The notes: generated from the letters alone by a model not told the origin. 64,000 bases of DNA from an uncultured Chloroflexia bacterium (GCA_963716585.1 CAVQTN010000002.1:28480-92479), one strand, 5' to 3'; shown: positions 3,160 to 60,185, counted from the stretch's first letter. Program-made: numbers and translations.

Positions 3160-3624
3160 TCAGCTGATCGAGATGACCGTGAAGTCGACCGGCCCGGCCG
3201 GCGCATGGACGGTGACCTTGTCCCCCTTCTTGGCACCCATCAGCGCGGCGCCCACCGGCGACTCGTTGCTGATGCGGCCCTCGCGCGGAGCAGCCTCGGC
3301 GGAGCCGACGATGGTGAACGTCTCCTCACCATCGGAGCCCTTGATGACGACCTTTGATCCGATGCCGACCTTGTCGGCGCCGTCGACCCGAGCGATGACC
3401 TCGGCGTTCTTGAGCTGACCCTCGAGCGTGGCGATGCGGCCCTCCAGGAACGACTGTTCCTGCTTGGCATCCTCGTACTCGGCGTTTTCGCTGATGTCAC
3501 CGTCCAGCTTCGCATCGTGGATGCGCTGCGCGACACGCGGGCGCTCGGTGGTGATCAGGAAGTTCAGCTCGGCCTTGAGCTTGTCGAGGCCCTCGGCGGT
3601 GAGATAGACGGGCTTGGTGTTCAT
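3160..3624 (-). CDS. greA: transcription elongation factor GreA
   Basis: The six-frame ORF is N-extended. The true start is MNTKPVYLTAEGLDKLKAELNFL at 3624 with GGAGG-like RBS context. GreA coiled-coil plus FKBP-like C-terminal domain, 154 aa. Confidence 0.85.
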   Translation of the reverse strand: MNTKPVYLTAEGLDKLKAELNFLITTERPRVAQRIHDAKLDGDISENAEYEDAKQEQSFLEGRIATLEGQLKNAEVIARVDGADKVGIGSKVVIKGSDGEETFTIVGSAEAAPREGRISNESPVGAALMGAKKGDKVTVHAPAGPVDFTVISIS

Positions 3625-3874: not shown

Positions 3875-4720
3875 TCAGCGACCGATCACCACCAGCATGA
3901 CCACCAGCGCGGCCAGGAGGATCCGATAGACGCTGAAGACAGCCACTGAATGGCGCCGCAGCCACGACAGCAGGAAGCCGATGGCCAGCATGCCGCTCAC
4001 CGCCGCAACGCCGAAGCCGACGCTGATCGCCAGCCACTCGGTGCCACTGTGCGCCTCGCTGAGCAGCCGGCGCGAACCGTACAGACCGGCACCCAGCGTG
4101 ATCGGCGTGGCGAGCAGGAAGCTGAAGCGCGCCGCCGCCTCGCGGCTGAGGCCCAGCGCCAGCCCCGCGGTGATCGTCGCGCCCGAACGGCTGATCCCCG
4201 GAATCAGCGCGAGCGCCTGGCTGAACCCAATGGTCAGGGCAGCGGGCGCGTCGAGCTCGGTCATTGCCCGGCGCCGCGCTCCGAGCCGGTCGGCCAGCCA
4301 CAGGGCGATGGCGCCGATCGCCAGGAAGCCGGCGATCAGCAGCCGCGCCACGTCCGAGTCGCCGTGGAACAGCGAGGTGATCAGGTCCTCGCCCAGGAAC
4401 CCGATGATCGCCGCGGGGATGGTGGCCATCACCAGCAACCAGGCCAGGCGTCGCTCGGGATCGCCGGCGATGCGTCGCTCGCGAACGCTGGCAACCAGCG
4501 CGGCGAGGTAGCGGACCCAGTCGCGTGCGAAATAGACGAGCAGGGCCAGCAGCGTCCCGAGGTGCAGGAAGACGTCGAAGGCGAGGCTGCTGAGCAGCCC
4601 ACCGGTGTCCCAGCCGGCCATCCACGGAGCCAGCGCCAGATGCGCCGAGGAGCTGACCGGAATGAACTCGGTCAGCCCCTGCAGCAGGCCGATCAGGGCG
4701 GCCTGGACGACGAGGTCCAA
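3875..4720 (-). CDS. uppP: undecaprenyl-diphosphate phosphatase (BacA/UppP)
   Basis: 281 aa polytopic membrane protein. N-terminus MDLVVQAALIGLLQGLTEFIPVSSSAHL and PGISRSGATI motif are typical of UppP. Confidence 0.9.
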   Translation of the reverse strand: MDLVVQAALIGLLQGLTEFIPVSSSAHLALAPWMAGWDTGGLLSSLAFDVFLHLGTLLALLVYFARDWVRYLAALVASVRERRIAGDPERRLAWLLVMATIPAAIIGFLGEDLITSLFHGDSDVARLLIAGFLAIGAIALWLADRLGARRRAMTELDAPAALTIGFSQALALIPGISRSGATITAGLALGLSREAAARFSFLLATPITLGAGLYGSRRLLSEAHSGTEWLAISVGFGVAAVSGMLAIGFLLSWLRRHSVAVFSVYRILLAALVVMLVVIGR

Positions 4721-6937
4721 CTAACGGATGAACAACGGCGCGAGCACCAGGGTGATCGTCGCCAGCAGCTTGACGAGCACGTGCAACGACGGACCGGCGG
4801 TGTCCTTGAACGGGTCACCCACCGTGTCGCCGACGACCGCCGCCGCGTGGGCCTCGGTCTTCTTGCCGAGCACGTTGCCGTCGTCATCGGTCAAATGCCC
4901 GGACTCGATGTACTTCTTGGCGTTGTCCCAGGCCCCGCCGCCGTTGTTGAGCACGGTGGCCAGCATGACGCCGGCGATGGTGCCCACCATCAGCAGGCCC
5001 GCCACGGCCTCGTGGCCGAGCAGCAGGCCCACGATGATCGGCGTTGCGACCGCCACGAGCCCGGGGGCGATCATCTGGCGCAGGGCGGCGCGAGTGGTGA
5101 TGTCGACCACGCGCGCGTAGTCGGGCCGCTGCGTGTAGTCCATGATCCCGGGCATCTCGCGAAACTGGCGGCGCACCTCGACGATGATCGTCTGCGCGGT
5201 GGTGCCCACCGCTCGGATGGCGAGGCTGGAGAAGAAGTAGACCAGCATGGCGCCGATCAACGCCGCCACGAAGACCGACACGTTCGACAGGTCGACAGAG
5301 GTGAGCAGCGTGCCCGCCGCGCGTGTCCCGGCGTCGATCTGGCGCTGCAGGATCAGGTTGACCTTGTCGATGTAGGCGCTGAACAGGAGGAAGGCGGCGA
5401 GGCTGGCCGAGGCGATGGCGTAGCCCTTGGTGAGCGCCTTGGTCGTGTTGCCGACCGCGTCCAGCCGATCGGTGATCTCGCGTGCGCTTGCTTCCGACTT
5501 GCTGAACTCGGCGATCCCGCCGGCGTTGTCGGTGATTGGCCCGAAGGTGTCCATGGCCAGGATGTACGCGGTGGTCATCAGCATGCCCATGGTCGCCACG
5601 GCGGTGCCGAAGATGCCGCCGACGTCCTTGCCGGCGGCGTTGGTCAGGCCGGCCTGCGAACCGAGCCAGTGGCTGGCGAGCAGGGCGACGCCGATCGCGA
5701 TGGCGGTCATCAGGGTCGTCTCGTAGCCGACCGCCGTACCCGAGATGATGTTGGTGGCCGCGCCGGTCTTGCTGGCCTCGGCGATCTCCTTGACCGGGCG
5801 CCACCCGCCGGCGGTGTAGTACTGGGTGATGTACACGAAGGCGACGCTGGTGATGAGGCCGACCACTCCGGCGCCGAAGAACCAGATCCAGGTCGGAATC
5901 CCGTTGGCGCCGAGATGGCCGCCGGTGTTCATCATCACCCAGGTGGTCAGCGCCAGCCCGGCAACCGACAGGATGGTCGTCACCCAGTACCCGCGGTTCA
6001 GGATGTTCATCGGGTCTTCGTCCTCGCGGCCGTTCACGAAGAACATGGCGATGATCGTCGCCAACAGGCCGAAGGCCCGCACCACCAACGGGAAGAAGAT
6101 CCATGCCTCGGGGTGCGGCCAGCCCGACGCGCTGGCGATGGCGTACACCGCAACGCCCAGGATCATGGCCCCGATGTTCTCCGCGGCGGTCGACTCGAAC
6201 AGGTCGGCGCCACGGCCGGCGCAATCGCCGACGTTGTCACCGACCAGGTCCGCGACGACGCCGGCGTTGCGCGGGTCATCCTCGGGGATGCCGGCCTCCA
6301 CCTTGCCGACCAGGTCGGAGCCGACGTCGGCCGCCTTGGTGTAGATCCCGCCGCCCAGCTGTGCGAACAGGGCGACGAAGCTGGCGCCGAAGCCGAAGCC
6401 GACGATCAGGAAGGGGGCCTGGTTCGGATGCGTGAAGCCGCCGTACGCGGCGAAGATGCCCCACACACCGAGCAGCGACAGGGCGACGACGAGGAAGCCA
6501 GAGACCGCGCCACCGCGCATCGCGATCTGCACGGCACCGACCAGGCTGTGGCGTGCCGCCGCAGCCGTGCGCAGGTTGGAGCGCACGCTGATGAACATGC
6601 CGATGATGCCCGAGGCCATGGAGCACGCCGCCCCGACGAGGAACGCGACGCCGGTGCGGATCCCGAGCTCGGTGCCGAACACATCGGTGTCCGCCACCTG
6701 CTTGCCCTCGACCACAGCGATCACCAGCCCGATGAGCAGCGCCCCTGCGATGGCGAGGATGCCGATCGTCTGATACTGCCGGCGGATAAAGGCGACCGCA
6801 CCCTCGAAGATGATGGCGGCAATCTCCTGCATCGCTTCCGTCCCGGTGTCAGCGTGGAGGACGCCCCAGGCGAGGTACAGCGCGAAGAGGATCGATGCGA
6901 CCCCGGCGACAGGGATCACCCAGGTGATGAGCTCCAT
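4721..6937 (-). CDS. hppA: membrane-bound H+-translocating pyrophosphatase, K+-independent type
   Basis: 738 aa from MELITWVIPVAG at 6937, with GGAGGA RBS just upstream. Multi-TM, with GNTTKA motif (Lys at the K+-independence position) and DVGADLVGKVE and DNVGDN motifs. The upstream 31 codons of the six-frame ORF are likely spurious. Confidence 0.9.
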   Translation of the reverse strand: MELITWVIPVAGVASILFALYLAWGVLHADTGTEAMQEIAAIIFEGAVAFIRRQYQTIGILAIAGALLIGLVIAVVEGKQVADTDVFGTELGIRTGVAFLVGAACSMASGIIGMFISVRSNLRTAAAARHSLVGAVQIAMRGGAVSGFLVVALSLLGVWGIFAAYGGFTHPNQAPFLIVGFGFGASFVALFAQLGGGIYTKAADVGSDLVGKVEAGIPEDDPRNAGVVADLVGDNVGDCAGRGADLFESTAAENIGAMILGVAVYAIASASGWPHPEAWIFFPLVVRAFGLLATIIAMFFVNGREDEDPMNILNRGYWVTTILSVAGLALTTWVMMNTGGHLGANGIPTWIWFFGAGVVGLITSVAFVYITQYYTAGGWRPVKEIAEASKTGAATNIISGTAVGYETTLMTAIAIGVALLASHWLGSQAGLTNAAGKDVGGIFGTAVATMGMLMTTAYILAMDTFGPITDNAGGIAEFSKSEASAREITDRLDAVGNTTKALTKGYAIASASLAAFLLFSAYIDKVNLILQRQIDAGTRAAGTLLTSVDLSNVSVFVAALIGAMLVYFFSSLAIRAVGTTAQTIIVEVRRQFREMPGIMDYTQRPDYARVVDITTRAALRQMIAPGLVAVATPIIVGLLLGHEAVAGLLMVGTIAGVMLATVLNNGGGAWDNAKKYIESGHLTDDDGNVLGKKTEAHAAAVVGDTVGDPFKDTAGPSLHVLVKLLATITLVLAPLFIR

Positions 6938-7100
6938 TGGTCCTCCGAAAGGGCAGCTGGCCACGGTCCGCCATTCCGGCGACCGGTCTGAACACACGGA
7001 AATCGCCGGCGATCGGGCCGCGAGCCGCATCCGCCAGCGAAGCGGCCGAATGGTAGCCCGCCGGGAGGCGCCGGGTCAACTTGCGCGGGTGGCCGTCGGC

Positions 7101-9188
7101 TCACGGGACCCAGCGCGGCTGCCAGCCATCATCTCCGATGCGACGGCTCCTTCCGCTGGACAGGTCGAACAGCCAGATACCACGCGCCGCCGGTGAGCCG
7201 CTGCGGCCGCCGGCGAGCAGCAGTCGATCCGGATCCGGGGTGAAGCGGACGGCGCTCAGCTGCATCGCGACAAGCAGGCTGCGGCCGGGACCGCCATCCG
7301 GGCGGGTCAGCCACGCGGCGCCGGTGCGGCCGCCGGGATCCAGCAACAGGTAGGCCATTCGCCCGTCGCCGTCGACCGTCGGCCGCGCGATCCCGTTCGG
7401 AAGGAGGCTGTCCACGGTCGCTTCGGCGCCGCGGTCGAGGCGAACGATCACCAGCGACCCGAGCAGCGAGTTGGCCAGGTCGCCGCTCTCGAGCTCGAGC
7501 GGCGCGACGGCCGCTCCGGGGCGCCGTGCGGGCGCGGACCCGGCACCCGACAGGCCGTTCAGCAGCAGGCCGCTCGAGTCGGGCAGCCAGACCGGCGGCT
7601 CGACCGAGCGGAAGGCTGCGGTGGTCAGACGCGCGGCGGGCAGCTCCAGCACGCCAACTCGGCCAGCCTCGTCGACAAAGGCAAGGGCGTGGCCGTCCGG
7701 GGAGTAGCGCGGCGCACGAAGCAGCGAGGCGGCCGGCTGGGCGGCGCTGGGCGATGGGGTCGCGCTGCCGGTCAGCTCGTCGGGCAGTTCAAGCTGGCGC
7801 GCGTCGCCACCGCCCGCCTCGCGGAGCCAGAGGCCCAGCCCGCTGCCGCTCGCCGCGTCGGCGCGGCCGAAGGCGATCTGCGCCCCGTTTGGTGAGTAGG
7901 TGGGATCAAACTCCAGGACGCCATCCTCGGTGAGGATGCGTCGCGATGTGCCGTCGGCGTGCTGCTCGACGAGGCGTGCACCATCGGCCACCACGAATGA
8001 GCGACCGTCGGGGGCGACGGCGTAATCCACGATCGGCGACAGCTCCGCGGAGAGCTGCCGCTGCCCGGTTCCGTCCGGATTCATGGCCCACAGGTTGGCA
8101 ACGCCCGATCGATCGGAGAGGTAGACCACCTGGTTGCCCAGGGTGGCCATCGGCGCGCCGGTCAGGAACGTCCAGGTCACCGACGCCGACAGACGAGAGC
8201 CGTCGGCACCGCGCAGGCCCGGGACGAGCGTCACCCGAAACGTCGTGTTGGGCGGCAGCGGGCCGGAGGGCTGAAACTCCAGCAGGCGGGCGTCGCCGTC
8301 CTGCAGGCCGGCCGCGCCCGGTGCGGCGACGACCGCCAGGGTGCCGGGCACGGCGGGGTCGAGCTCGAACTGGTCGTTGCCGAGGCTGCCCGGATCGAGG
8401 GCGCGGTCGAAGACGATGACGATCGGCGAGGTGACCGCGATGCCGTCGCTGGCATCGGCCGGGACGAGGCTGCGCACCGCCAGGCCGGGTGCCGTGGTCG
8501 AGAAGACGAGGCTGAAGGGCTGCTCAAGCGACGAGCCTCCGAGGTCGCGCGCACCCTGGCCGATGGTCACGGCGTAGCGCTGGTCGGCCGCCAGCGGCGC
8601 GCGTGGCTCGATCGTCAGCTGCTCGCCGCTCCAGCGCAGGTCGTAACCGACGGCCGGCGAAAGCTCGAGCGCGGTTGCCACCGAGCGCGTGTCCATGAGC
8701 GTCGAGAACGTGATGCGGATCGAGGCGTCGAGCGGCACGTCGGTCGCGTTGGCCGCGGGATCGCTGTCCACAACCTGCGGCTCGCCCACCGTCGTGAAGC
8801 CAAAGGCCGCCGAGGCCTGCTGCATCTCGTTGCCCGCGCTGTCGCGAACGCCGGGCTCGATGTGCGCCGTGAAGTCGGTCTTCGGCGGCAGCGGCTGCAG
8901 CGGGGTGAAGGTCAGGGTGCTGTCAGTCCAGCTGTAGGAGCCGTCGACGGCAGGCTCGATGCGGAAGGCGGCCTCCGCCTCCGGCTTGTCGACCGGCTCC
9001 GAGAAATGGATCTCGAGGCTGGTGCTGGTCAGCGCGACGGCGGTGTCCCCGGAGAGATGCTGACTCAGTGAGAAGCTGGTGACGCCCGGCGGACGCGAGT
9101 CGACGGTGCTGGCGTAGTACAGGATCCCGGCGAGCACGGCCGCGCCGACGACGAAGACCGCGAAGCTCCGCAGCAGCACACGCCGCAC
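7101..9188 (-). CDS. secreted or membrane-anchored protein with tandem Ig-like (Big/SbsA-type) domains and a C-terminal TolB-like beta-propeller (PD40 repeats)
   Basis: 695 aa with an N-terminal TM/signal anchor. Four or more repeats of about 90 aa with SPxxG/xDVPLDxxIxIxF patterns typical of bacterial Ig-like domains. The C-terminal half has PDG..xAF.. repeats typical of PD40/TolB propellers. The start overlaps the rpoN stop by 4 bp. Confidence 0.65.
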   Translation of the reverse strand: MRRVLLRSFAVFVVGAAVLAGILYYASTVDSRPPGVTSFSLSQHLSGDTAVALTSTSLEIHFSEPVDKPEAEAAFRIEPAVDGSYSWTDSTLTFTPLQPLPPKTDFTAHIEPGVRDSAGNEMQQASAAFGFTTVGEPQVVDSDPAANATDVPLDASIRITFSTLMDTRSVATALELSPAVGYDLRWSGEQLTIEPRAPLAADQRYAVTIGQGARDLGGSSLEQPFSLVFSTTAPGLAVRSLVPADASDGIAVTSPIVIVFDRALDPGSLGNDQFELDPAVPGTLAVVAAPGAAGLQDGDARLLEFQPSGPLPPNTTFRVTLVPGLRGADGSRLSASVTWTFLTGAPMATLGNQVVYLSDRSGVANLWAMNPDGTGQRQLSAELSPIVDYAVAPDGRSFVVADGARLVEQHADGTSRRILTEDGVLEFDPTYSPNGAQIAFGRADAASGSGLGLWLREAGGGDARQLELPDELTGSATPSPSAAQPAASLLRAPRYSPDGHALAFVDEAGRVGVLELPAARLTTAAFRSVEPPVWLPDSSGLLLNGLSGAGSAPARRPGAAVAPLELESGDLANSLLGSLVIVRLDRGAEATVDSLLPNGIARPTVDGDGRMAYLLLDPGGRTGAAWLTRPDGGPGRSLLVAMQLSAVRFTPDPDRLLLAGGRSGSPAARGIWLFDLSSGRSRRIGDDGWQPRWVP

Positions 9189-52378: not shown

Positions 52379-53575
52379 CTACATCTCTCCCTCGTACGCC
52401 GGCTGCGGCATGCGCAGCTGCCGGTCCTTGCGATAGCCGAGCAGGTAGTCGGCCTGCATCAGGGTGTGGATCTGTGACGTTCCCTCGTAGATCACCGAGC
52501 CCTTGCTGTTGCGCATGTAGCGTTCCACGGGGTACTCGTTGGAGTAGCCATAGGCGCCATGCACCTGGATGGCGTCCATGGCGGACTGCACGGCGTGGTC
52601 GGTGGCGAACCACTTGGCCAGCGATGTCTCGCGCGTGCTGCGCTCCCCGCGATTCTTCTTCCAGCCCGCCTTCCAGACAAGCAGCCGTCCCGCCTCGAGG
52701 CCCTGCTCCATGCGAGCCAGCATCTGCTTGACCAGCTGGTGGCGGCCGATCTCCTCGCCGAACGCCGAACGTTCGTGCGCGTACTTGACCGATGCGTCCA
52801 GGCACGCCTGTGTCAACCCAACTGAGCCAGCGGCCACCGTGTAACGCCCCTGGTCGATGGCGCTCATGGCGATCGTGAAGCCCTCGCCCTCTTCGCCGAC
52901 CCGGTTGGCGACCGGCACCTCGCAGTCGCTGAAGTAGACGATCCCGGTGTTGCCGGCACGCACGCCGAGCTTGCCGTGCAGTGAATCGGACGAGAAACCG
53001 GCGAAGCCGCGCTCGACGATGAAGGCGCTGATGCCCTTGTGCCCCTTGCCCTTGTCGAGCGTGGCGAAGGTGAGGAAATGGTCGGCGGTGTCGGCCAGGC
53101 TGATCCAGATCTTCGAGCCGTTGAGGATGTAGCGATCGCCGTCTCGGCGAGCGGTGGTCGACAGGTTGCCGGCATCCGACCCGACGCCCGGTTCGGTCAG
53201 CGCGAAGGTGGCGATCTTCTCCCCCTGCGCCTGCGGAACGAGGTACCGCTCCTTCTGCTCCTCCGACGCCCACTGCAGCAGCGTCAGCGAGTTGAGCCCG
53301 GTGTGCACCGACAGGATCACGCGGAAGGCGGTGTCGGCGCGCTCCATCTCCTCGCACAGCAGCGCGAAGGCGATGTAGTCCATCCCCGCGCCGCCGTAGC
53401 GCTCCGGGATCGGCAAGCCCAGGAAGCCCTCGGCCCCCATCTTGTCGTACAGGCTGCGGTCGTACTCGGCGTTGGCATCCATCTCGGCGATGCGCGGCAG
53501 GATCTCGCGCTCGGCGAAGGCACGCGCGGTGCGCTGCACCTCGCGCTGCGCATCGGTGAGAGAAAAGTCGATCAT
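52379..53575 (-). CDS. acyl-CoA dehydrogenase
   Basis: 398 aa. ACAD motifs FALTEPGVGSD and YEGTSQIHTLM, with a short C-terminal extension. Confidence 0.88.
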   Translation of the reverse strand: MIDFSLTDAQREVQRTARAFAEREILPRIAEMDANAEYDRSLYDKMGAEGFLGLPIPERYGGAGMDYIAFALLCEEMERADTAFRVILSVHTGLNSLTLLQWASEEQKERYLVPQAQGEKIATFALTEPGVGSDAGNLSTTARRDGDRYILNGSKIWISLADTADHFLTFATLDKGKGHKGISAFIVERGFAGFSSDSLHGKLGVRAGNTGIVYFSDCEVPVANRVGEEGEGFTIAMSAIDQGRYTVAAGSVGLTQACLDASVKYAHERSAFGEEIGRHQLVKQMLARMEQGLEAGRLLVWKAGWKKNRGERSTRETSLAKWFATDHAVQSAMDAIQVHGAYGYSNEYPVERYMRNSKGSVIYEGTSQIHTLMQADYLLGYRKDRQLRMPQPAYEGEM

Positions 53576-53648
53576 GACGCCTGATTCTACCGATGCGCCC
53601 CGCTTCAGGCGGGCGGGTCAATCCCGACCGGTTCGTCGGTGATTCGGA

Positions 53649-53679
53649 TTGACGAAGGAATGACCTTAGGCTAGCCTAA
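53649..53679 (+). promoter_or_regulatory. putative promoter (-35 TTGACG, -10 TAGCCT) overlapped by a perfect 14-bp palindrome TTAGGCTAGCCTAA, a candidate metalloregulator operator upstream of the FTR1 permease
   Basis: The palindrome at 53666..53679 is AT-rich in a 72% GC background. Its half-sites TTAGG/CCTAA resemble DtxR/IdeR-type iron boxes. It lies 80 nt upstream of the FTR1 start. Confidence 0.45.
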
Positions 53680-53760
53680 CTCGCGACCAGCATGCGCCGC
53701 CCGAACAGCGAGCCGGCGCGCTCACGACACCAGGAGTGCTCCCCTTTGGACTTCGGTTTC

Positions 53761-54618
53761 ATGACGACCGGCCTGCTCACCGGCCTGCGCGAGGGCGTCG
53801 AGGCCGCGCTCATCGTGAGCATCATCCTCGCCTACCTGGCGAGGACGGGGAACGGCAGGCACGCGGGCAAGATCTGGTTCGGCTCAGGCGCCGCGATCAC
53901 GGTGAGCGTCGCTGCGGGCGTCGTCCTGTTCGTGAGCATCGGCGGACTGAAAGCGCCGGCGGAGCAGATCTTCGAGGGCAGCGCCATGCTGCTGGCGGCA
54001 GCGGTCGTCACCTGGATGCTGTTCTGGATGCGGCGCACGGCGGCGTCGGCCAAGGGTGACCTGCAGGCCAGCGTCGACCGTCATCTCGTCGAGGGCAGCG
54101 TCTGGGGACTGGCGATCCTCGCCTTTACCGCGGTCATCCGCGAGGGCATCGAGACGTCCCTCTTCCTGATGGCGCAGGCACAGGCGGCAACGCAGGCGGA
54201 CGGCAGTGCTCTGAGTACGCTGTTGGGTGCCGTCATCGGCCTGGCCATTGCCGTCGTCATCGGCTACGGCTTCTACAAGGGCGCGCGCGTCCTCAACCTG
54301 CGTACGTTCTTCCGGTGGACGGGTATCGCCCTGGTGTTCATCGCCGCCGGGCTGCTGAGCCACGGTATCCACGAATTCATCGAGGCCGGCGTCATCTCGT
54401 TCGGCAGCGCCACCGCCTTCGACATCCGTACGGTGCTGTCGGACGAGGCAGGGATCGGGCAATGGCTGCGCGCCATCTTCGGGTACAGCGCGAACCCGGA
54501 GTGGATCACCTTCGTCGCCTGGCTGGCCTACGTGACCGCGGTGCTGACTGCCTACCTGCGACCCGTCGAGCGGCGCCCCGCCGCGTCGCGCTCCGAGCAG
54601 AAGGTCGCCGGCGCCTGA
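53761..54618 (+). CDS. high-affinity iron permease FTR1/EfeU family
   Basis: Seven TM helices and two RExxE motifs (LREGVEAAL and IREGIETSL). A TTG at 53746 is an alternative in-frame start. Confidence 0.85.
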   Translation: MTTGLLTGLREGVEAALIVSIILAYLARTGNGRHAGKIWFGSGAAITVSVAAGVVLFVSIGGLKAPAEQIFEGSAMLLAAAVVTWMLFWMRRTAASAKGDLQASVDRHLVEGSVWGLAILAFTAVIREGIETSLFLMAQAQAATQADGSALSTLLGAVIGLAIAVVIGYGFYKGARVLNLRTFFRWTGIALVFIAAGLLSHGIHEFIEAGVISFGSATAFDIRTVLSDEAGIGQWLRAIFGYSANPEWITFVAWLAYVTAVLTAYLRPVERRPAASRSEQKVAGA

Positions 54619-55647: not shown

Positions 55648-56463
55648 TTACGCGTGCACCGCGCCAGAGAGGCGCGAAACCACCTCGCCGACCGCGGGCG
55701 CGCCGCCGTCACGCATCGCGGCAACCAGCGCCGAGCCCACCACGATGCCGTCGGCCACTCCCCGGAGCTCGCGCGCCTGATCGGGAGTCGAGATGCCGAA
55801 GCCGGCGGCAACCGGCAGACGTCCGGCGGCTGCCACGGCGACGCGCCGCAGCAACGCCGCGGCTCCCTCGGCCAGCCGCTCCCGCGCGCCCGTCACGCCG
55901 AGCAGCGGAACGACGTACAGGAAGCCGGTCGAGGCCTCGATCGCCGCCTCCATGCGCGGCGCAGCCGTGTTCGGTGCGACGAGGAAGGTGAGCGCCAGGC
56001 CACGGTCGGCCGCCGAGCGCTCGAAGCCCGGCATCTCGCCGGCAGGCAGGTCCGGGACGATGAGGCCGTCGCAGCCGGCCTCGGCCAGCCTTCGGAGGGC
56101 GGTCTCGGCGCCCACCGCGAGCAGCGGGTTGAGGTAGGTCATCGCCAGGATGGGCTGCTCCAGGCCCCGCGAACGGAGCGCTGCCACCATCCGCAACGCC
56201 GAGTCGAACCCGCCACCGTGCTCGAGCGCCACGCGGCCCGCCCCGGCGATCACCGGGCCGTCGGCCAGCGGGTCGCTGAATGGGACGCCCACCTCCAGGA
56301 TGTCCGCTCCGCAGCGCAGCGCAGCCTCGCCCGCATCGGTCCCGGCCTCATCGGTCGGAAAGCCGGCCATGACGTACGCGACAAAGGCTGATCGGCCGGC
56401 ATCGGTCGCCGACGCAAACGCGGCGCGCACCCGCGCGGCGCCATCGGGAGCGGACGAGCTCAT
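55648..56463 (-). CDS. trpA: tryptophan synthase alpha chain
   Basis: 271 aa. [17 protein letters not shown] and [10 protein letters not shown] motifs. The start overlaps the upstream trpCFB stop. Confidence 0.92.
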
Positions 56464-59132
56464 GCGGAGGCGGCAGCCAGCGCGGAGGTCAGCGCGCCTT
56501 CGACAATCGCGAGGTCTTTGTCGCCTCGGCCGGACAGGTTCACGAGCACCGCGGCCGAAGCGGTCAGCGAGGGCAGCAGGCGCAGCGCCGCCGCTACCGC
56601 GTGGGCAGATTCCAGCGCCGGCACGATCCCGCAGCGACGGGAGAGCCAGTGCAGCGCCTCGAGTGCCTCGTCGTCGGTGGCGCGTTCAACGTCGAGGCGC
56701 CCGGACGCGGCCAGCGCCGAGAGCTGCGGACCCACGCCCGGATAGTCGAGACCCGCGGACAGGGAGTGCGGCTCGACGACCTGACCGTCCGCCGTCTGGG
56801 TGAGCATCGTGAAGGCGCCATGCAGCACGCCGGGCCGGCCCAAACCCAGCGAGGCGGCGTTGTCGCCGAGCGCGTCGCCCCGGCCGCCGGCCTCGACCCC
56901 GATCAGCCGCACCGACGTGTCCAGGAACGGTCGGAACAGCCCGATTGCGTTCGATCCCCCGCCGACGCACGCCATGGCCACATCGGGGAGACGACCCAAC
57001 CGGTCCAGCATCTGCGCTCGCGCCTCGCGCCCGATGACCGACTGGAGCTCGGCCACCATGTCCGGGTACGGATGCGGACCCGCCGCCGAGCCGAGGACAT
57101 AGAAGGTCGTCTCGACGTTCGCCACCCAGTCGCGCAGCGCCTCGTTCAGCGCATCGCGCAGCGTGCCGTTGCCAGTCTCGACCGGGCGCACGGTAGCGCC
57201 AAGCAGGTGCATGCGCTGGACGTTCGGCGCCTGGCGCTCGATGTCGGTGGTGCCCATGTACACCACGCACTCCAGGCCGAGCAGCGCGCAGGCGGTCGCC
57301 GTCGCCACGCCGTGCTGGCCGGCGCCGGTCTCGGCAATCACCCGCGGCTTGCCCATGCGCTCCGCCAGCAGCGTCTGCCCGATGGCGTTGTTGATCTTGT
57401 GGGCGCCGGTGTGCGCCAGGTCCTCGCGCTTGAGGAACACGCGCTGGCCCACGCCGCCACGCTCGGCGAGCGCGCCGCGCGGAATCTCGAAGATGGGCGT
57501 GGGGCGACCGATGAAATCACGATGCAGACGCCGAAGTTCGGCGGTGTACGCCGGGTCGCGTTTGGCCGCCGCCCAGGCGGCGGCCAGCTCGGCGAGCGCC
57601 GGGATGAGCGTCTCGGGGACGTAGCGTCCCCCGAAGCGGCCGAAGCGGCCCCTGGCGTCGACCCGATCCGCGCCGGTCGGGTCGCGCCGCGCATTGCGGG
57701 CGAAGGTCCTGATGCGTCGCACGTCCGCTTCGCCGTTGCGCTCGAGGCCGCCACTGGCGTCGACCAGCGCGGGGCGGGCAGTGGCGACTGCGCGAGCAAC
57801 GTTCGCCGGCGTCAGGCCCCCCGCCAGGCCGATCGGCAAGATGCGGTTGAGGCGTCTGACAAGCTGCAGGTCCGGGGTGCGTCCCGATCCCCCGCCCTCG
57901 GCATTGGTCGCGCCCTCGAGCAGGAGGCGCGTCGCTCCGGCCGCGTACCACGCTTCGGCGAGGCGCAGCGTGTGGCGCACTCCGTTGGCTCCGTGCAGGA
58001 CGCCGATCAGTTCGTCGTGGTCCACGGCCGCAAGCCAGGCCGGCGGCTCGTCGAATCCCGAAAGCTGCACGTTGCGAATGCCGCTTGAGCCAACCCCGGC
58101 CGCGACCTCTTCGCGCGTCGGCCGATGGAAGACGAGAACCGGCTTCGGCCCGCCGTTGAGGTCGTTGGCCAACGCGCCGGCGAGCTCCAGCGAGATGCTC
58201 CGACGGCGCCCCGAAGCCACGACGAAACCGGCGAAGTCCGCGCCGGCCGCGACCGCGGCCCGGACTCCCGCCTCCGATCGTGTGCCACACACCTTCACCA
58301 ACGTGCGCTTGGGCGGCGACGGCACGACAACCGGCTCGCGTTGCGGCGCAGCGTCCACCAGGTGGCGGGCCGCGGCCGCCGGATCGCCGGACGAGAGCAG
58401 ACTCGTCCCGACCAGCACGCCGTGAGCGCCCGCCTCGGCCGCTCGGTCAAGGTCGGCTGAGCTCGCCAGGCCACTTTCCGCGATGAGCGTGGCACCGGAC
58501 AATCGCGCCTGCGCGACGAGGCGCATGGCACGCGGCACATCCGTCTCGAGCGTCGCCAGGTCGCGGGCGTTGACGCCGATCAGGGTCGCGTCCGCTCGCA
58601 AGGCGCGCTCCAGCTCGGCTTCGTCGTGCACCTCGACCAGCGCGTCCAGGCCGGCTTCGCCGGTGGCTTCGAGCAGCTCGCGCAGCCGGTTACCCCGAAG
58701 GGCCCGGACGATGAGCAGGACCGCATCCGCCCCGAGGGCTCGCGCCTGGAAGACCTGGTAGCGGCTCGTCGTGAAGTCCTTGCGCAGGACCGGCAGGCCG
58801 ATGCCGGACGCCGCCCGCAGGTCCTCGTCACTGCCGCCGAAGCGCGTCGGCTCGGTGAGGATCGAGAGGGCGGCCGCACCGGCGCCGGCGTACGCGCGCG
58901 CCAGCTCGACCACATCGCCGATCTCTTCGAAGCTGCCCGCCGAGGGCGAGGCGCGCTTGATCTCGGCGACGAGACCCAGCCGGTCGCCGTGGCGCAGCGC
59001 TGCCTCGAAGCGGCGGGCTGGGGGCCGGGCCTCCACCTCGCGCTGCAGCTCGCGCATCGGCACGATCCGGGCATCGTGACGCGCCCGGGCACGCGAAGCA
59101 GCCAGGAGCTCGTGGAGCACGCTGCGGCTCAT
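56460..59132 (-). CDS. trifunctional fusion: indole-3-glycerol-phosphate synthase (TrpC), phosphoribosylanthranilate isomerase (TrpF) and tryptophan synthase beta (TrpB)
   Basis: A single 890-aa ORF. Residues 1-265 are IGPS ([27 protein letters not shown]). Residues 270-470 are PRAI (LVKVCGT..., [18 protein letters not shown]). Residues 480-890 are TrpB ([45 protein letters not shown]). No Met or stop at the junctions. Confidence 0.85.
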
Positions 59133-60169
59133 GGGCGGATCGCCGCTGCGGCGGTGACCACCTCGGCGGCCCTGCCCGAATCGATGGAGGTCGCGGCCAT
59201 CTCGACGCCTTCGCCGACGTCGTTGGCGCGCCCGGCAGCGAACAGCGCGGCGCCGGCGTTGAGCAGGGTGACGTCGCGGGCCGGACCCGGCTCGCCGCCG
59301 AGCACCGACATCGCGATCGCCGCATTGAGCTGTGCATCGCCACCGGCCAGGACAAGGGCCGGCGCGCGGCGCAGACCCAGCGTTGCCGCATCGATCTCGA
59401 GCTCCGCGATCACCCGGCCCTCGATGAGCAGTGCCCGGTTCGGCCCGTTGAGTGTCAGCTCGTCGAGGCCCTCTGGCGAGTGGATGACCAGTGCCCGTTC
59501 GGTCGGCAGGCGCGCCAAGGCCCCGGCAATGAGCGGCAGCAGACGCTCATCGGCCACGCCCAGGAGCTGCCGACGTACCCCGGCCGGCGACGAGATCGGT
59601 CCGAGCAGGTTGAAGACGGTGCGCATCGGCAGCTCGCGGCGAATCGGCATGGCGTGTTTCAGCGCCGGATGGTAGGAGGGCGCGAACATGAAGCCGAAGC
59701 ACGTCTCGCGAATGGACCGCGCGACCGCCTCGGGCCCGGGATCGAGGGCGATGCCGAGTGCCTCGACGAGGTCTGCGGATCCGCATCGGCTGGTGATCGC
59801 GCGGTTCCCGTGCTTGGCCACCGGCACGCCGGCGCCGGCCACAACGAAGGCGGCCAGCGTCGAGATGTTGAACGTGCCACTCCCGTCTGCGCCGGTGCCA
59901 CACAGGTCCACCGCGTCATCGGGCGCCTCGACCTTGACGGCGCGGGCGCGCATCACCCGGGCGAATGCCGCCAGCTCCTCCGGTGTCTCGCCGCGCACGC
60001 GCAGCATGGCCAGCAGCGCGGCGACCTGCGTCGCCGGCGCCCTGCCGTCCATCAGCTCTTCCATGGCGGCCTCGGCCAGCGGCGCAGGCATCGCGGCGCC
60101 GTTGGCGACCAGCTCCACCGCGGCGGCCACCGCGGGCCGATGCTCCTGCGTCGCTTGCGTGCCTGCCAT
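59129..60169 (-). CDS. trpD: anthranilate phosphoribosyltransferase
   Basis: 346 aa. [39 protein letters not shown]-binding region. First gene of the trp cluster, with a GAGGA SD. Confidence 0.92.
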
Positions 60170-60185
60170 GGTTCATCCTCGGGTA

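Follow-up and report, generated by a model that had tools for sequence, protein, structure and literature searches.

Why should a perfect, AT-rich palindrome lie across the promoter of a solitary iron-permease gene in GC-rich DNA, and what would bind to it? The window, by which we mean the whole stretch of 64,000 nucleotides that was analysed, contains such a sequence in the intergenic region 53576-53745, between an acyl-CoA dehydrogenase gene and an FTR1 gene. A preliminary description of this DNA had reported a perfect 14-bp palindrome with TTAGG/CCTAA arms, and the sequence is present as described. The elements of the locus are as follows.

52379-53575, minus strand: divergent acyl-CoA dehydrogenase gene (Pfam), sharing the intergenic region with FTR1
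53620-53644, no strand: IR1, an inverted repeat AATCCCGAC-N6-GTCGGTGATT (N6 = cggttc) just upstream of the -35 element, recognized by conservation
53649-53654, plus strand: predicted -35 element TTGACG of the FTR1 promoter, from conservation in related promoters
53661-53679, no strand: 19-bp register TGACCTTAGGCTAGCCTAA with possible weak half-sites for a second dimer, 15/19 against the consensus TWAGGTWAGSCTWACCTWA
53666-53679, no strand: perfect 14-bp palindrome TTAGGCTAGCCTAA (TTAGG-CTAG-CCTAA), predicted one-dimer operator of the DtxR/IdeR type (iron box)
53672-53677, plus strand: predicted -10 element TAGCCT, within the right half of the palindrome, from conservation in related promoters
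53732-53736, plus strand: putative ribosome-binding site AGGAG, 9 nt ahead of TTG 53746, judged from the sequence
53746-54618, plus strand: FTR1/EfeU-family iron permease of 290 amino acids from TTG 53746, monocistronic (Pfam PF03239, E = 4e-56)

The palindrome is rare in its surroundings. Even at a tolerance of 3 mismatches, it is the sole match to TTAGGCTAGCCTAA in 64 kb (0.19 expected from shuffled sequences). A search for TWAGG-N4-CCTWA at no more than one mismatch likewise returned it as the single site, so that the 64-kb window holds no further members of a possible regulon defined by this pattern. Four other CTAGCCT spots (11343, 28370, 28989 and 41384) have nothing in common beyond a possible -10 element. 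The GC content ranges from 0.67 to 0.73 and is about 0.70 overall, rather than the 72% first given, but the palindrome does stand out as AT-rich: among the eight perfect 14-bp palindromes of the window, it is the only such one, with 8 A/T positions compared to 0 to 4 in the others. Further copies, for which a search had been suggested, are absent from the window and numerous in related loci and in metagenome contigs (see below).

The stretch 53649-53679 runs from the start of the -35 element to the end of the palindrome, which spans the last six bases of the 17-nt spacer, the -10 hexamer and two bases past it. The coordinates thus agree with the overlap between the palindrome and a TTGACG-N17-TAGCCT promoter that the preliminary description had proposed, the promoter itself being deduced from conservation. 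Of 54 related promoters, 47 have TTGACG exactly 17 nt ahead of TAGCCT, and 4 more have TTGACT in its place. A generic promoter and terminator scan of 53400-53900 called nothing; the promoter escaped it since TAGCCT shares only 3 of its 6 bases with TATAAT. In related promoters devoid of the box, TTGACG-N17-TAGCAT stands in the same place, which supports TAGCCT as the -10 element and the box as being laid over it. We therefore presume that TTGACG and TAGCCT form an active promoter. The -10 hexamer itself accounts for part of the conservation at this site, namely, that of TAGCCT.

The product of the gene carries both RExxE motifs (REGVE and REGIE), as had been noted for this lone FTR1 gene, which indeed stands by itself. 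Homologues of 289 to 296 amino acids align over the whole 290-residue product and, in some sources, go by the name "iron uptake transporter permease EfeU." The start is likely TTG 53746, and the distance of 80 nt given earlier is recovered when counted from the palindrome start to this codon. Among relatives, the palindrome-to-start-codon distance varies from 7 to 70 nt; hence, the in-frame ATG 53692, the mechanical start of the open reading frame, is not conserved. In 58 of 80 related loci, FTR1 likewise has the acyl-CoA dehydrogenase gene as its divergent neighbor; on its other side in the window lies a dienelactone hydrolase gene, which is convergent.

Two observations concern other genes of the window. 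The acyl-CoA dehydrogenase gene has a TAGAAT sequence (53589-53584, minus strand) 8 nt before its ATG, without a recognizable -35 element, and its transcript is probably leaderless; GATTCTAGCC recurs at the start region of this gene (window 53573-53589, minus strand) in related loci. Furthermore, 56460-59132 (minus strand) constitutes one open reading frame of 890 amino acids that joins IGPS (TrpC), PRAI (TrpF) and a PALP/TrpB-type domain, an unusual triple fusion located between trpA (55648-56463) and trpD (59129-60172).

The nearest relatives of the FTR1 protein (84-85% identity and below) belong to MAGs named Candidatus Limnocylindria, of the Chloroflexota. Eighty related FTR1 loci and the window made up a comparison set of 856 kb, in which the 10-mer core AGGCTAGCCT occurs in 37 copies, all of them at a distance of 44-82 nt ahead of an FTR1 start. 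When 54 promoters were aligned without gaps, the consensus was At.CCGACc....c.tCGGT.aTTCGg.TTGACGaA.g...g..G T.AGGCTAGCCT.A ct. The site in these promoters is TWAGGCTAGCCTWA, i.e., T-W-A-G-G-C-T-A-G-C-C-T-W-A flanked by G on the left and C on the right, with the 17-nt spacing to the -35 element fixed. AGG and CCT are unvaried in all 54 sites, while A or T prevails at positions 2 (45/54) and 13 (50/54); the combinations of these two positions include TAAGG..CCTTA (21 times), TTAGG..CCTAA (13 times) and TCAGG..CCTAA (8 times). Conservation of this strength across 54 related promoters indicates that the palindrome is not a product of chance. The same promoter module (IR1, TTGACGAA and the box) precedes an SBP_bac_6 (Fe3+-type) lipoprotein gene, not FTR1, in five other Limnocylindria contigs.

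L085, 2633-3727: SBP_bac_6 gene behind the module
L102, 1978-3063: SBP_bac_6 gene behind the module
L122, 2204-3307: SBP_bac_6 gene behind the module
L131, 2050-3046: SBP_bac_6 gene behind the module
L166, 221-1355: SBP_bac_6 gene behind the module

At locus L064, the SBP_bac_6 gene (6907-7935) comes after FTR1; the window contains no copy of this gene.

The second conserved element of these promoters, IR1, starts 44 nt before the 16-mer GTWAGGCTAGCCTWAC (the site with its flanking G and C) in all loci of the window's type. In 792 kb, 28 of 35 matches to the IR1 pattern sit 87-125 nt before an FTR1 start, and the repeat is kept in loci without the iron box. In the window, IR1 lies upstream of the -35 element, which rules out a role as an RNA element in the transcript of FTR1. 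Loci of the Limnocylindrales type have it in the 5' leader, after the -10 element, as a near-perfect 9-7-9 palindrome. The repeat is almost confined to FTR1 and Fe3+ binding-protein promoters of Limnocylindria and does not accompany the 16-mer in other phyla. Its occurrences elsewhere, in the form AATCCCGAC-N6/7-GTCGG(G/T)GATT, are as follows.

L054, 2490-2512: IR1
L074, 932-954: IR1
L207, ~9686: IR1
L208, 9496-9518: IR1
L209, ~9900: IR1

The arms of the palindrome recall the binding sites of DtxR and IdeR. The consensus of the 19-bp DtxR/IdeR iron box is TTAGGTTAG(G/C)CTAACCTAA (PMC1382209). Crystal structures of Saccharopolyspora erythraea IdeR resolve the box into four CCTAA pentamers, of which one dimer contacts repeats 1 and 3, and a site designed for a single dimer binds IdeR at a KD of about 78 nM with the stoichiometry of one dimer (PMC8464063). 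Within the pentamer CCTWA, C1/C2 and T3 are essential, A4 and A5 are less so, and position 4 is tolerant (PMC8464063). Repeats 1 and 3 amount to TTAGG-N4-CCTAA (5 + 4 + 5 bp), which is the spacing of the window palindrome. The preliminary description had taken TTAGG/CCTAA for the DtxR/IdeR half-site, and the pentamer is indeed the same, with AGG and CCT being invariant; its remark that the central spacing departs from the IdeR consensus has to be revised, as the spacing is that of the one-dimer pair formed by repeats 1 and 3 (PMC8464063). The pattern of conservation (CCT fixed, A or T at position 4 and A at position 5) tracks the base requirements of IdeR.

The 14-mer corresponds to consensus positions 1-14 or 6-19, in each case with one mismatch. 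The window matches the full box at 14/19 in the right-extended register and at 15/19 in the left-extended one, in which related sites mostly reach 14-16/19. The left flank of these sites, T-G-R-S-G, is weakly TWAGG-like, and the right flank bears no resemblance to CCTWA. With 4 mismatches in the 19-bp register, the window site is missed by a 19-mer search. One-dimer sites are, however, accepted IdeR targets, so an incomplete set of four pentamers does not exclude membership among the iron boxes. The site agrees with such a box in its inverted TWAGG/CCTWA pentamers, in its one-dimer spacing and in its overlap with the inferred FTR1 promoter, and it is best described as a putative one-dimer iron box, to which a second dimer would bind weakly, if at all. 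No paper was found in a literature search for the 14-mer or the 12-mer as exact strings, and the 10-mer core was met once, in a predicted DtxR site of C. efficiens.

Comparison with characterized sites places the window box more precisely. It shares the pentamer and the invariant C-C-T with the actinobacterial 19-bp box (IdeR of M. tuberculosis and DtxR of C. diphtheriae/C. glutamicum; PMC1382209, PMC8464063), and like that box it overlaps an iron-uptake promoter in the layout of a repressor site (PMC1382209). It differs in having two good pentamers of four and in its center, a fixed CTAG in which the -10 element also begins. The host here belongs to the Chloroflexota (class Limnocylindria) and is not an actinobacterium, which matters since IdeR/DtxR boxes have been characterized mainly in Actinobacteria. 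The "half binding site" of S. erythraea IdeR (Marcos-Torres et al. 2021, PMC8464063) has the same inverted CCTAA pentamers at the spacing of repeats 1 and 3. That site is designed or, in its natural form (C23S1), degenerate, whereas the predicted window site is a perfect natural palindrome; unlike the S. erythraea half site, this form is kept across a whole class and also occurs in other phyla.

If the palindrome is an iron box, it should recur before genes of iron homeostasis, and across genomes it does, with one site in the 64 kb of the window. Metagenome contigs were scanned with the 16-mer GTWAGGCTAGCCTWAC as the query, a choice that samples only sites with both flanking G and C and thus leaves aside those with a left flank like the window's own. 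The 16-mer was found in at least 120 loci with GC contents of 0.30 to 0.77, about 25 of which are Limnocylindria relatives and not independent. Among the matches listed, 93 immediate flanking genes were identified, including 17 FTR1 genes, about 10 genes for Fe3+-type binding proteins, 4 for Peripla_BP_2 and 4 for siderophore-interacting proteins, as well as 2 each for FeoA, SufBD and DtxR-family proteins. Six of the 17 FTR1 proteins are only 34-42% identical to that of the window (L089, L095, L139, L116, L142 and L165; contigs of 49-70% GC). Pfam checks of genes beside the 16-mer identified FeoB (L083, L092), FeoA (L093), ferritin (L084), heme oxygenase (L141), Lys/Orn N-monooxygenase (L104), a siderophore-interacting protein (L114) and DtxR-family proteins (L129, L178). 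DtxR-family genes are present in 5 of the 120 listed loci, and a Fur gene is present in 1. The flanks of the 16-mer complete a 19-bp box (at least 3 of 4 TWAG matches) in 38 cases among the matches listed, compared to 14.6 expected; examples are TTAGGTTAGGCTAGCCTAA at L105 and TTAGGTAAGGCTAGCCTAA at L133.

Several of the metagenome sites have features of their own. A near-perfect box, TTAGGTAAGGCTAGCCTAA (18/19), lies ahead of a ribosomal protein S4 paralogue at L133 (~1007-1027) and L135 (~650-670), on a contig of ~70% GC. At L116 (~4040-4063) and L142 (~3225-3248), the sequence ATAGG-TAAGG-CTAG-CCTTA-CCTAC forms two overlapping 19-bp boxes; this contig has about 70% GC, and its FTR1 protein is 42% identical to that of the window. 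In contigs of 43-49% GC (L107 ~1159, L117 ~1164, L134 ~3472 and L148 ~9280), the 16-mer occupies the center of a palindrome of ~40 bp, CCCTCCCTTTTGTTAGGCTAGCCTAACAAAAGGGAGGG, which looks like a hairpin or a repeat element rather than a simple operator.

Which protein would read the box? The 64-kb window holds no homologue of DtxR, IdeR, MntR or Fur, so the regulator that the preliminary description had hoped to identify is not encoded there; by their listed Pfam families, the other 45 open reading frames are housekeeping genes, with no iron-uptake or metal-regulator family among them. Searches for DtxR homologues returned no protein from the source contig of the window among the 240 matches listed. 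Related MAGs commonly carry DtxR-family genes. Six related loci that lack the CTAG-centered box (L037, L054, L060, L062, L074 and L078) have a three-domain DtxR-family gene as the divergent neighbor of FTR1, and Pfam confirmed this assignment for L037, L054 and L060. Further genes of the L054 type are divergent from FTR1 at L207 and L208 and from an SBP-permease-ATPase operon at L209.

L054, 1630-2376, minus strand: DtxR-family gene of the L054 type
L060, 4998-5768, minus strand: DtxR-family gene of the L054 type
L207-L209, 10001-~10770, plus strand: DtxR-family genes of the L054 type

The intergenic regions shared by these genes contain exact TNAGG-N4-CCTNA palindromes (TCAGGTCCGCCTGA at L054, TCAGGCGAGCCTGA at L060, TCAGGTAGCCCTGA at L208 and TCAGGGATGCCTGA at L209); scaled from the window scan, about 0.001 exact sites would be expected per 270 bp. 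No other exact site occurs within about 20 kb at L208 and L209, where a second, looser copy of the intergenic palindrome lies over the -35 element. The boxes at these sister-lineage genes are TCAGG/CCTGA and not TWAGG/CCTWA. Within the class, the arrangement ties a DtxR-family protein and the T-N-A-G-G form of the box to the same pair of target genes. The proposal of a metal-dependent repressor operator, as first made from the layout, thus gains from conservation, from recurrence at iron genes and from the DtxR-family neighbors in sister lineages, all of which argue in its favor at the level of sequence.

The L054-type proteins are not canonical. Compared to IdeR (PDB 1fx7), M10 is replaced by G, H98 by D, C102 by G, E105 by Q and H106 by G, and the recognition helix reads S-T-Q-A-A-S-E where IdeR has S-G-P-T-V-S-Q. 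A TCPHGN motif is invariant in these proteins, and the family comprises 4744 relatives at E values up to 1e-10. The Limnocylindrales loci (L054, L060, L062, L074, L078 and L207-L209) have the targets (FTR1 and SBP_bac_6), the T-N-A-G-G-N4-C-C-T-N-A form and IR1 in common with the window. In contrast, their TCAGG/CCTGA boxes lie upstream of and over the -35 element with IR1 after the -10 element, an order that is reversed in the window; moreover, their regulator is adjacent and lacks the primary metal ligands of IdeR, while no regulator lies near the window site. A Fur gene adjoins FTR1 in two related loci, L018 (6959-7705, minus strand) and L039. A second type of DtxR-family gene (L037 type) adjoins FTR1 at L037 (5093-5809, minus strand), L203 (10001-10723) and L206, at L203 together with cupredoxin and ferritin genes, and in these loci a different palindrome (TGACCTCTAAGGTCA / ACCTCTAAGGT) follows the -10 element. 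The L037-type loci (L203, L206) were considered as an explanation of the window box and rejected, as their ACCTCTAAGGT-type palindrome differs. Regulators and operators at FTR1 have evidently turned over within the class.

These sister loci suggest an extended scheme, which we put forward tentatively and consider rather doubtful: Limnocylindria may control iron by means of two operators, the one-dimer box and IR1 (AATCCCGAC-N7-GTCGGGATT), with a divergent DtxR-family protein running the system. In such a system, box and IR1 would always occur together at FTR1 and Fe3+ binding-protein promoters, with their order swapped between lineages. The regulator would lack all four primary ligands of IdeR (M10, C102, E105 and H106), and metal might be sensed otherwise, for instance, through the invariant TCPHGN. 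Should this hold, the window box would be read by a noncanonical sensor and not by a textbook IdeR, and GTWAGGCTAGCCTWAC would serve several phyla as a natural DtxR operator that binds one dimer with high affinity.

The conclusion that we consider likely is a simpler one, namely, that the palindrome is the operator of a metal-dependent repressor of the DtxR/IdeR family on the FTR1 promoter. The best-surviving alternative keeps the family and changes the metal: a Mn-sensing member of the MntR, TroR or SloR type would read the operator, and the permease would answer to Mn2+. By tblastn, some DtxR-family genes beside the 16-mer encode MntR-like ligands (E at the C102 position at L129 and D at M10 at L180), and JGI labels many DtxR-family relatives as "Mn-dependent," although this label is generic. 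The genes behind the box are, however, iron systems (FTR1, Fe3+-type binding proteins, FeoAB, siderophore functions, ferritin and heme oxygenase), and the pentamer is that of the IdeR/DtxR iron box. Known operators of Mn sensors (B. subtilis MntR and SloR) also look different from the window box. Control by manganese therefore seems improbable, and iron is presumably the metal that is sensed.

A regulator of another family (e.g., of the ArsR, MarR, Rrf2 or TetR type) might instead bind the palindrome, its likeness to an iron box being coincidental. The window has no regulator gene that would name the DtxR family, the conserved IR1 suggests that at least one further factor may act, and the DtxR-like neighbors of the sister lineages have noncanonical DNA-reading helices. 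This idea is harder still to sustain than control by manganese: conservation matches the base requirements of IdeR at each position, the 16-mer lies within full 19-bp boxes more often than by chance, and DtxR-family genes outnumber Fur genes beside it. The conserved sequence could also be nothing but promoter, consisting of a -10 element and an extended upstream element with accidental dyad symmetry. TAGCCT does lie at -10 distance from a conserved -35 element, and GGCTAGCCT is retained in a few loci in which the outer arms have decayed (L024, L034, L044, L048 and L050). A promoter alone, however, leaves unexplained why AGG does not vary at spacer positions -17 to -15 and why the outer T/A and G/C pairs repeat the right arm in mirror image. 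Those related promoters in which the box is missing have TAGCAT and no symmetry, and the 16-mer precedes iron genes at 30-77% GC, where promoters are quite different; we consider this reading very improbable. Finally, an RNA or DNA hairpin (attenuator, stabilizer or processing site) in place of a protein site would fit the frequent joint change of positions 2 and 13, which would also keep a stem, but merits next to no credence, given that the stem of 5 bp, with a folding energy of -4.7 kcal/mol, does not surpass shuffled sequences (z = +0.39), that 20 of 54 sites are noncomplementary at these positions and that the predicted transcription start lies downstream of the palindrome, which would thus not be transcribed intact. 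An Rfam search over 53450-53850 at E values up to 1 gave no match, and an RNA reading was dropped, as neither the palindrome nor the putative 5' leader folds better than shuffled sequences and Rfam offers no match.

For the DtxR/IdeR-type operator, the following course of events would apply. Under metal sufficiency (most likely Fe2+), one metal-loaded repressor dimer would settle on the palindrome, its two recognition helices reading TTAGG (53666-53670) and CCTAA (53675-53679). Bound over the spacer and TAGCCT, the repressor would keep RNA polymerase off, and no FTR1 permease would be made; under metal shortage, it would leave and the permease would be expressed. FTR1 would thus very probably be off when metal is plentiful. 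We infer that the palindrome is bound, in a metal-dependent and repressive manner, by a DtxR-family protein that this genome encodes.

FTR1-type iron uptake is under the control of Fur in E. coli (efeUOB) and B. subtilis (ywbLMN). The window locus likewise combines an FTR1/EfeU permease with a predicted operator for an iron-sensing repressor over the promoter. The regulator family and the box differ, as there it is a Fur box, and the EfeO/EfeB partners found there are absent beside the FTR1 gene of the window. Inspection of the intergenic sequence for a Fur box (an AT-rich GATAATGATAATCATTATC-type 19-mer or 7-1-7 repeats) found none.

A metal-loaded repressor seated on a -10 element is already a textbook mechanism; what is new is its setting in a little-studied lineage. 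Limnocylindria are an abundant, uncultured class of Chloroflexota in freshwater and soil, and we know of no experimental genetics for them. The finding provides a concrete candidate cis element for iron regulation in this class. The one-dimer iron box, seen in vitro only in 2021, would be met here as a perfectly conserved natural operator, as predicted from the aligned promoters. Since the same 16-mer marks iron-uptake genes at very different GC contents, a search for TWAGG-N4-CCTWA may be used to annotate iron regulons in metagenomes.
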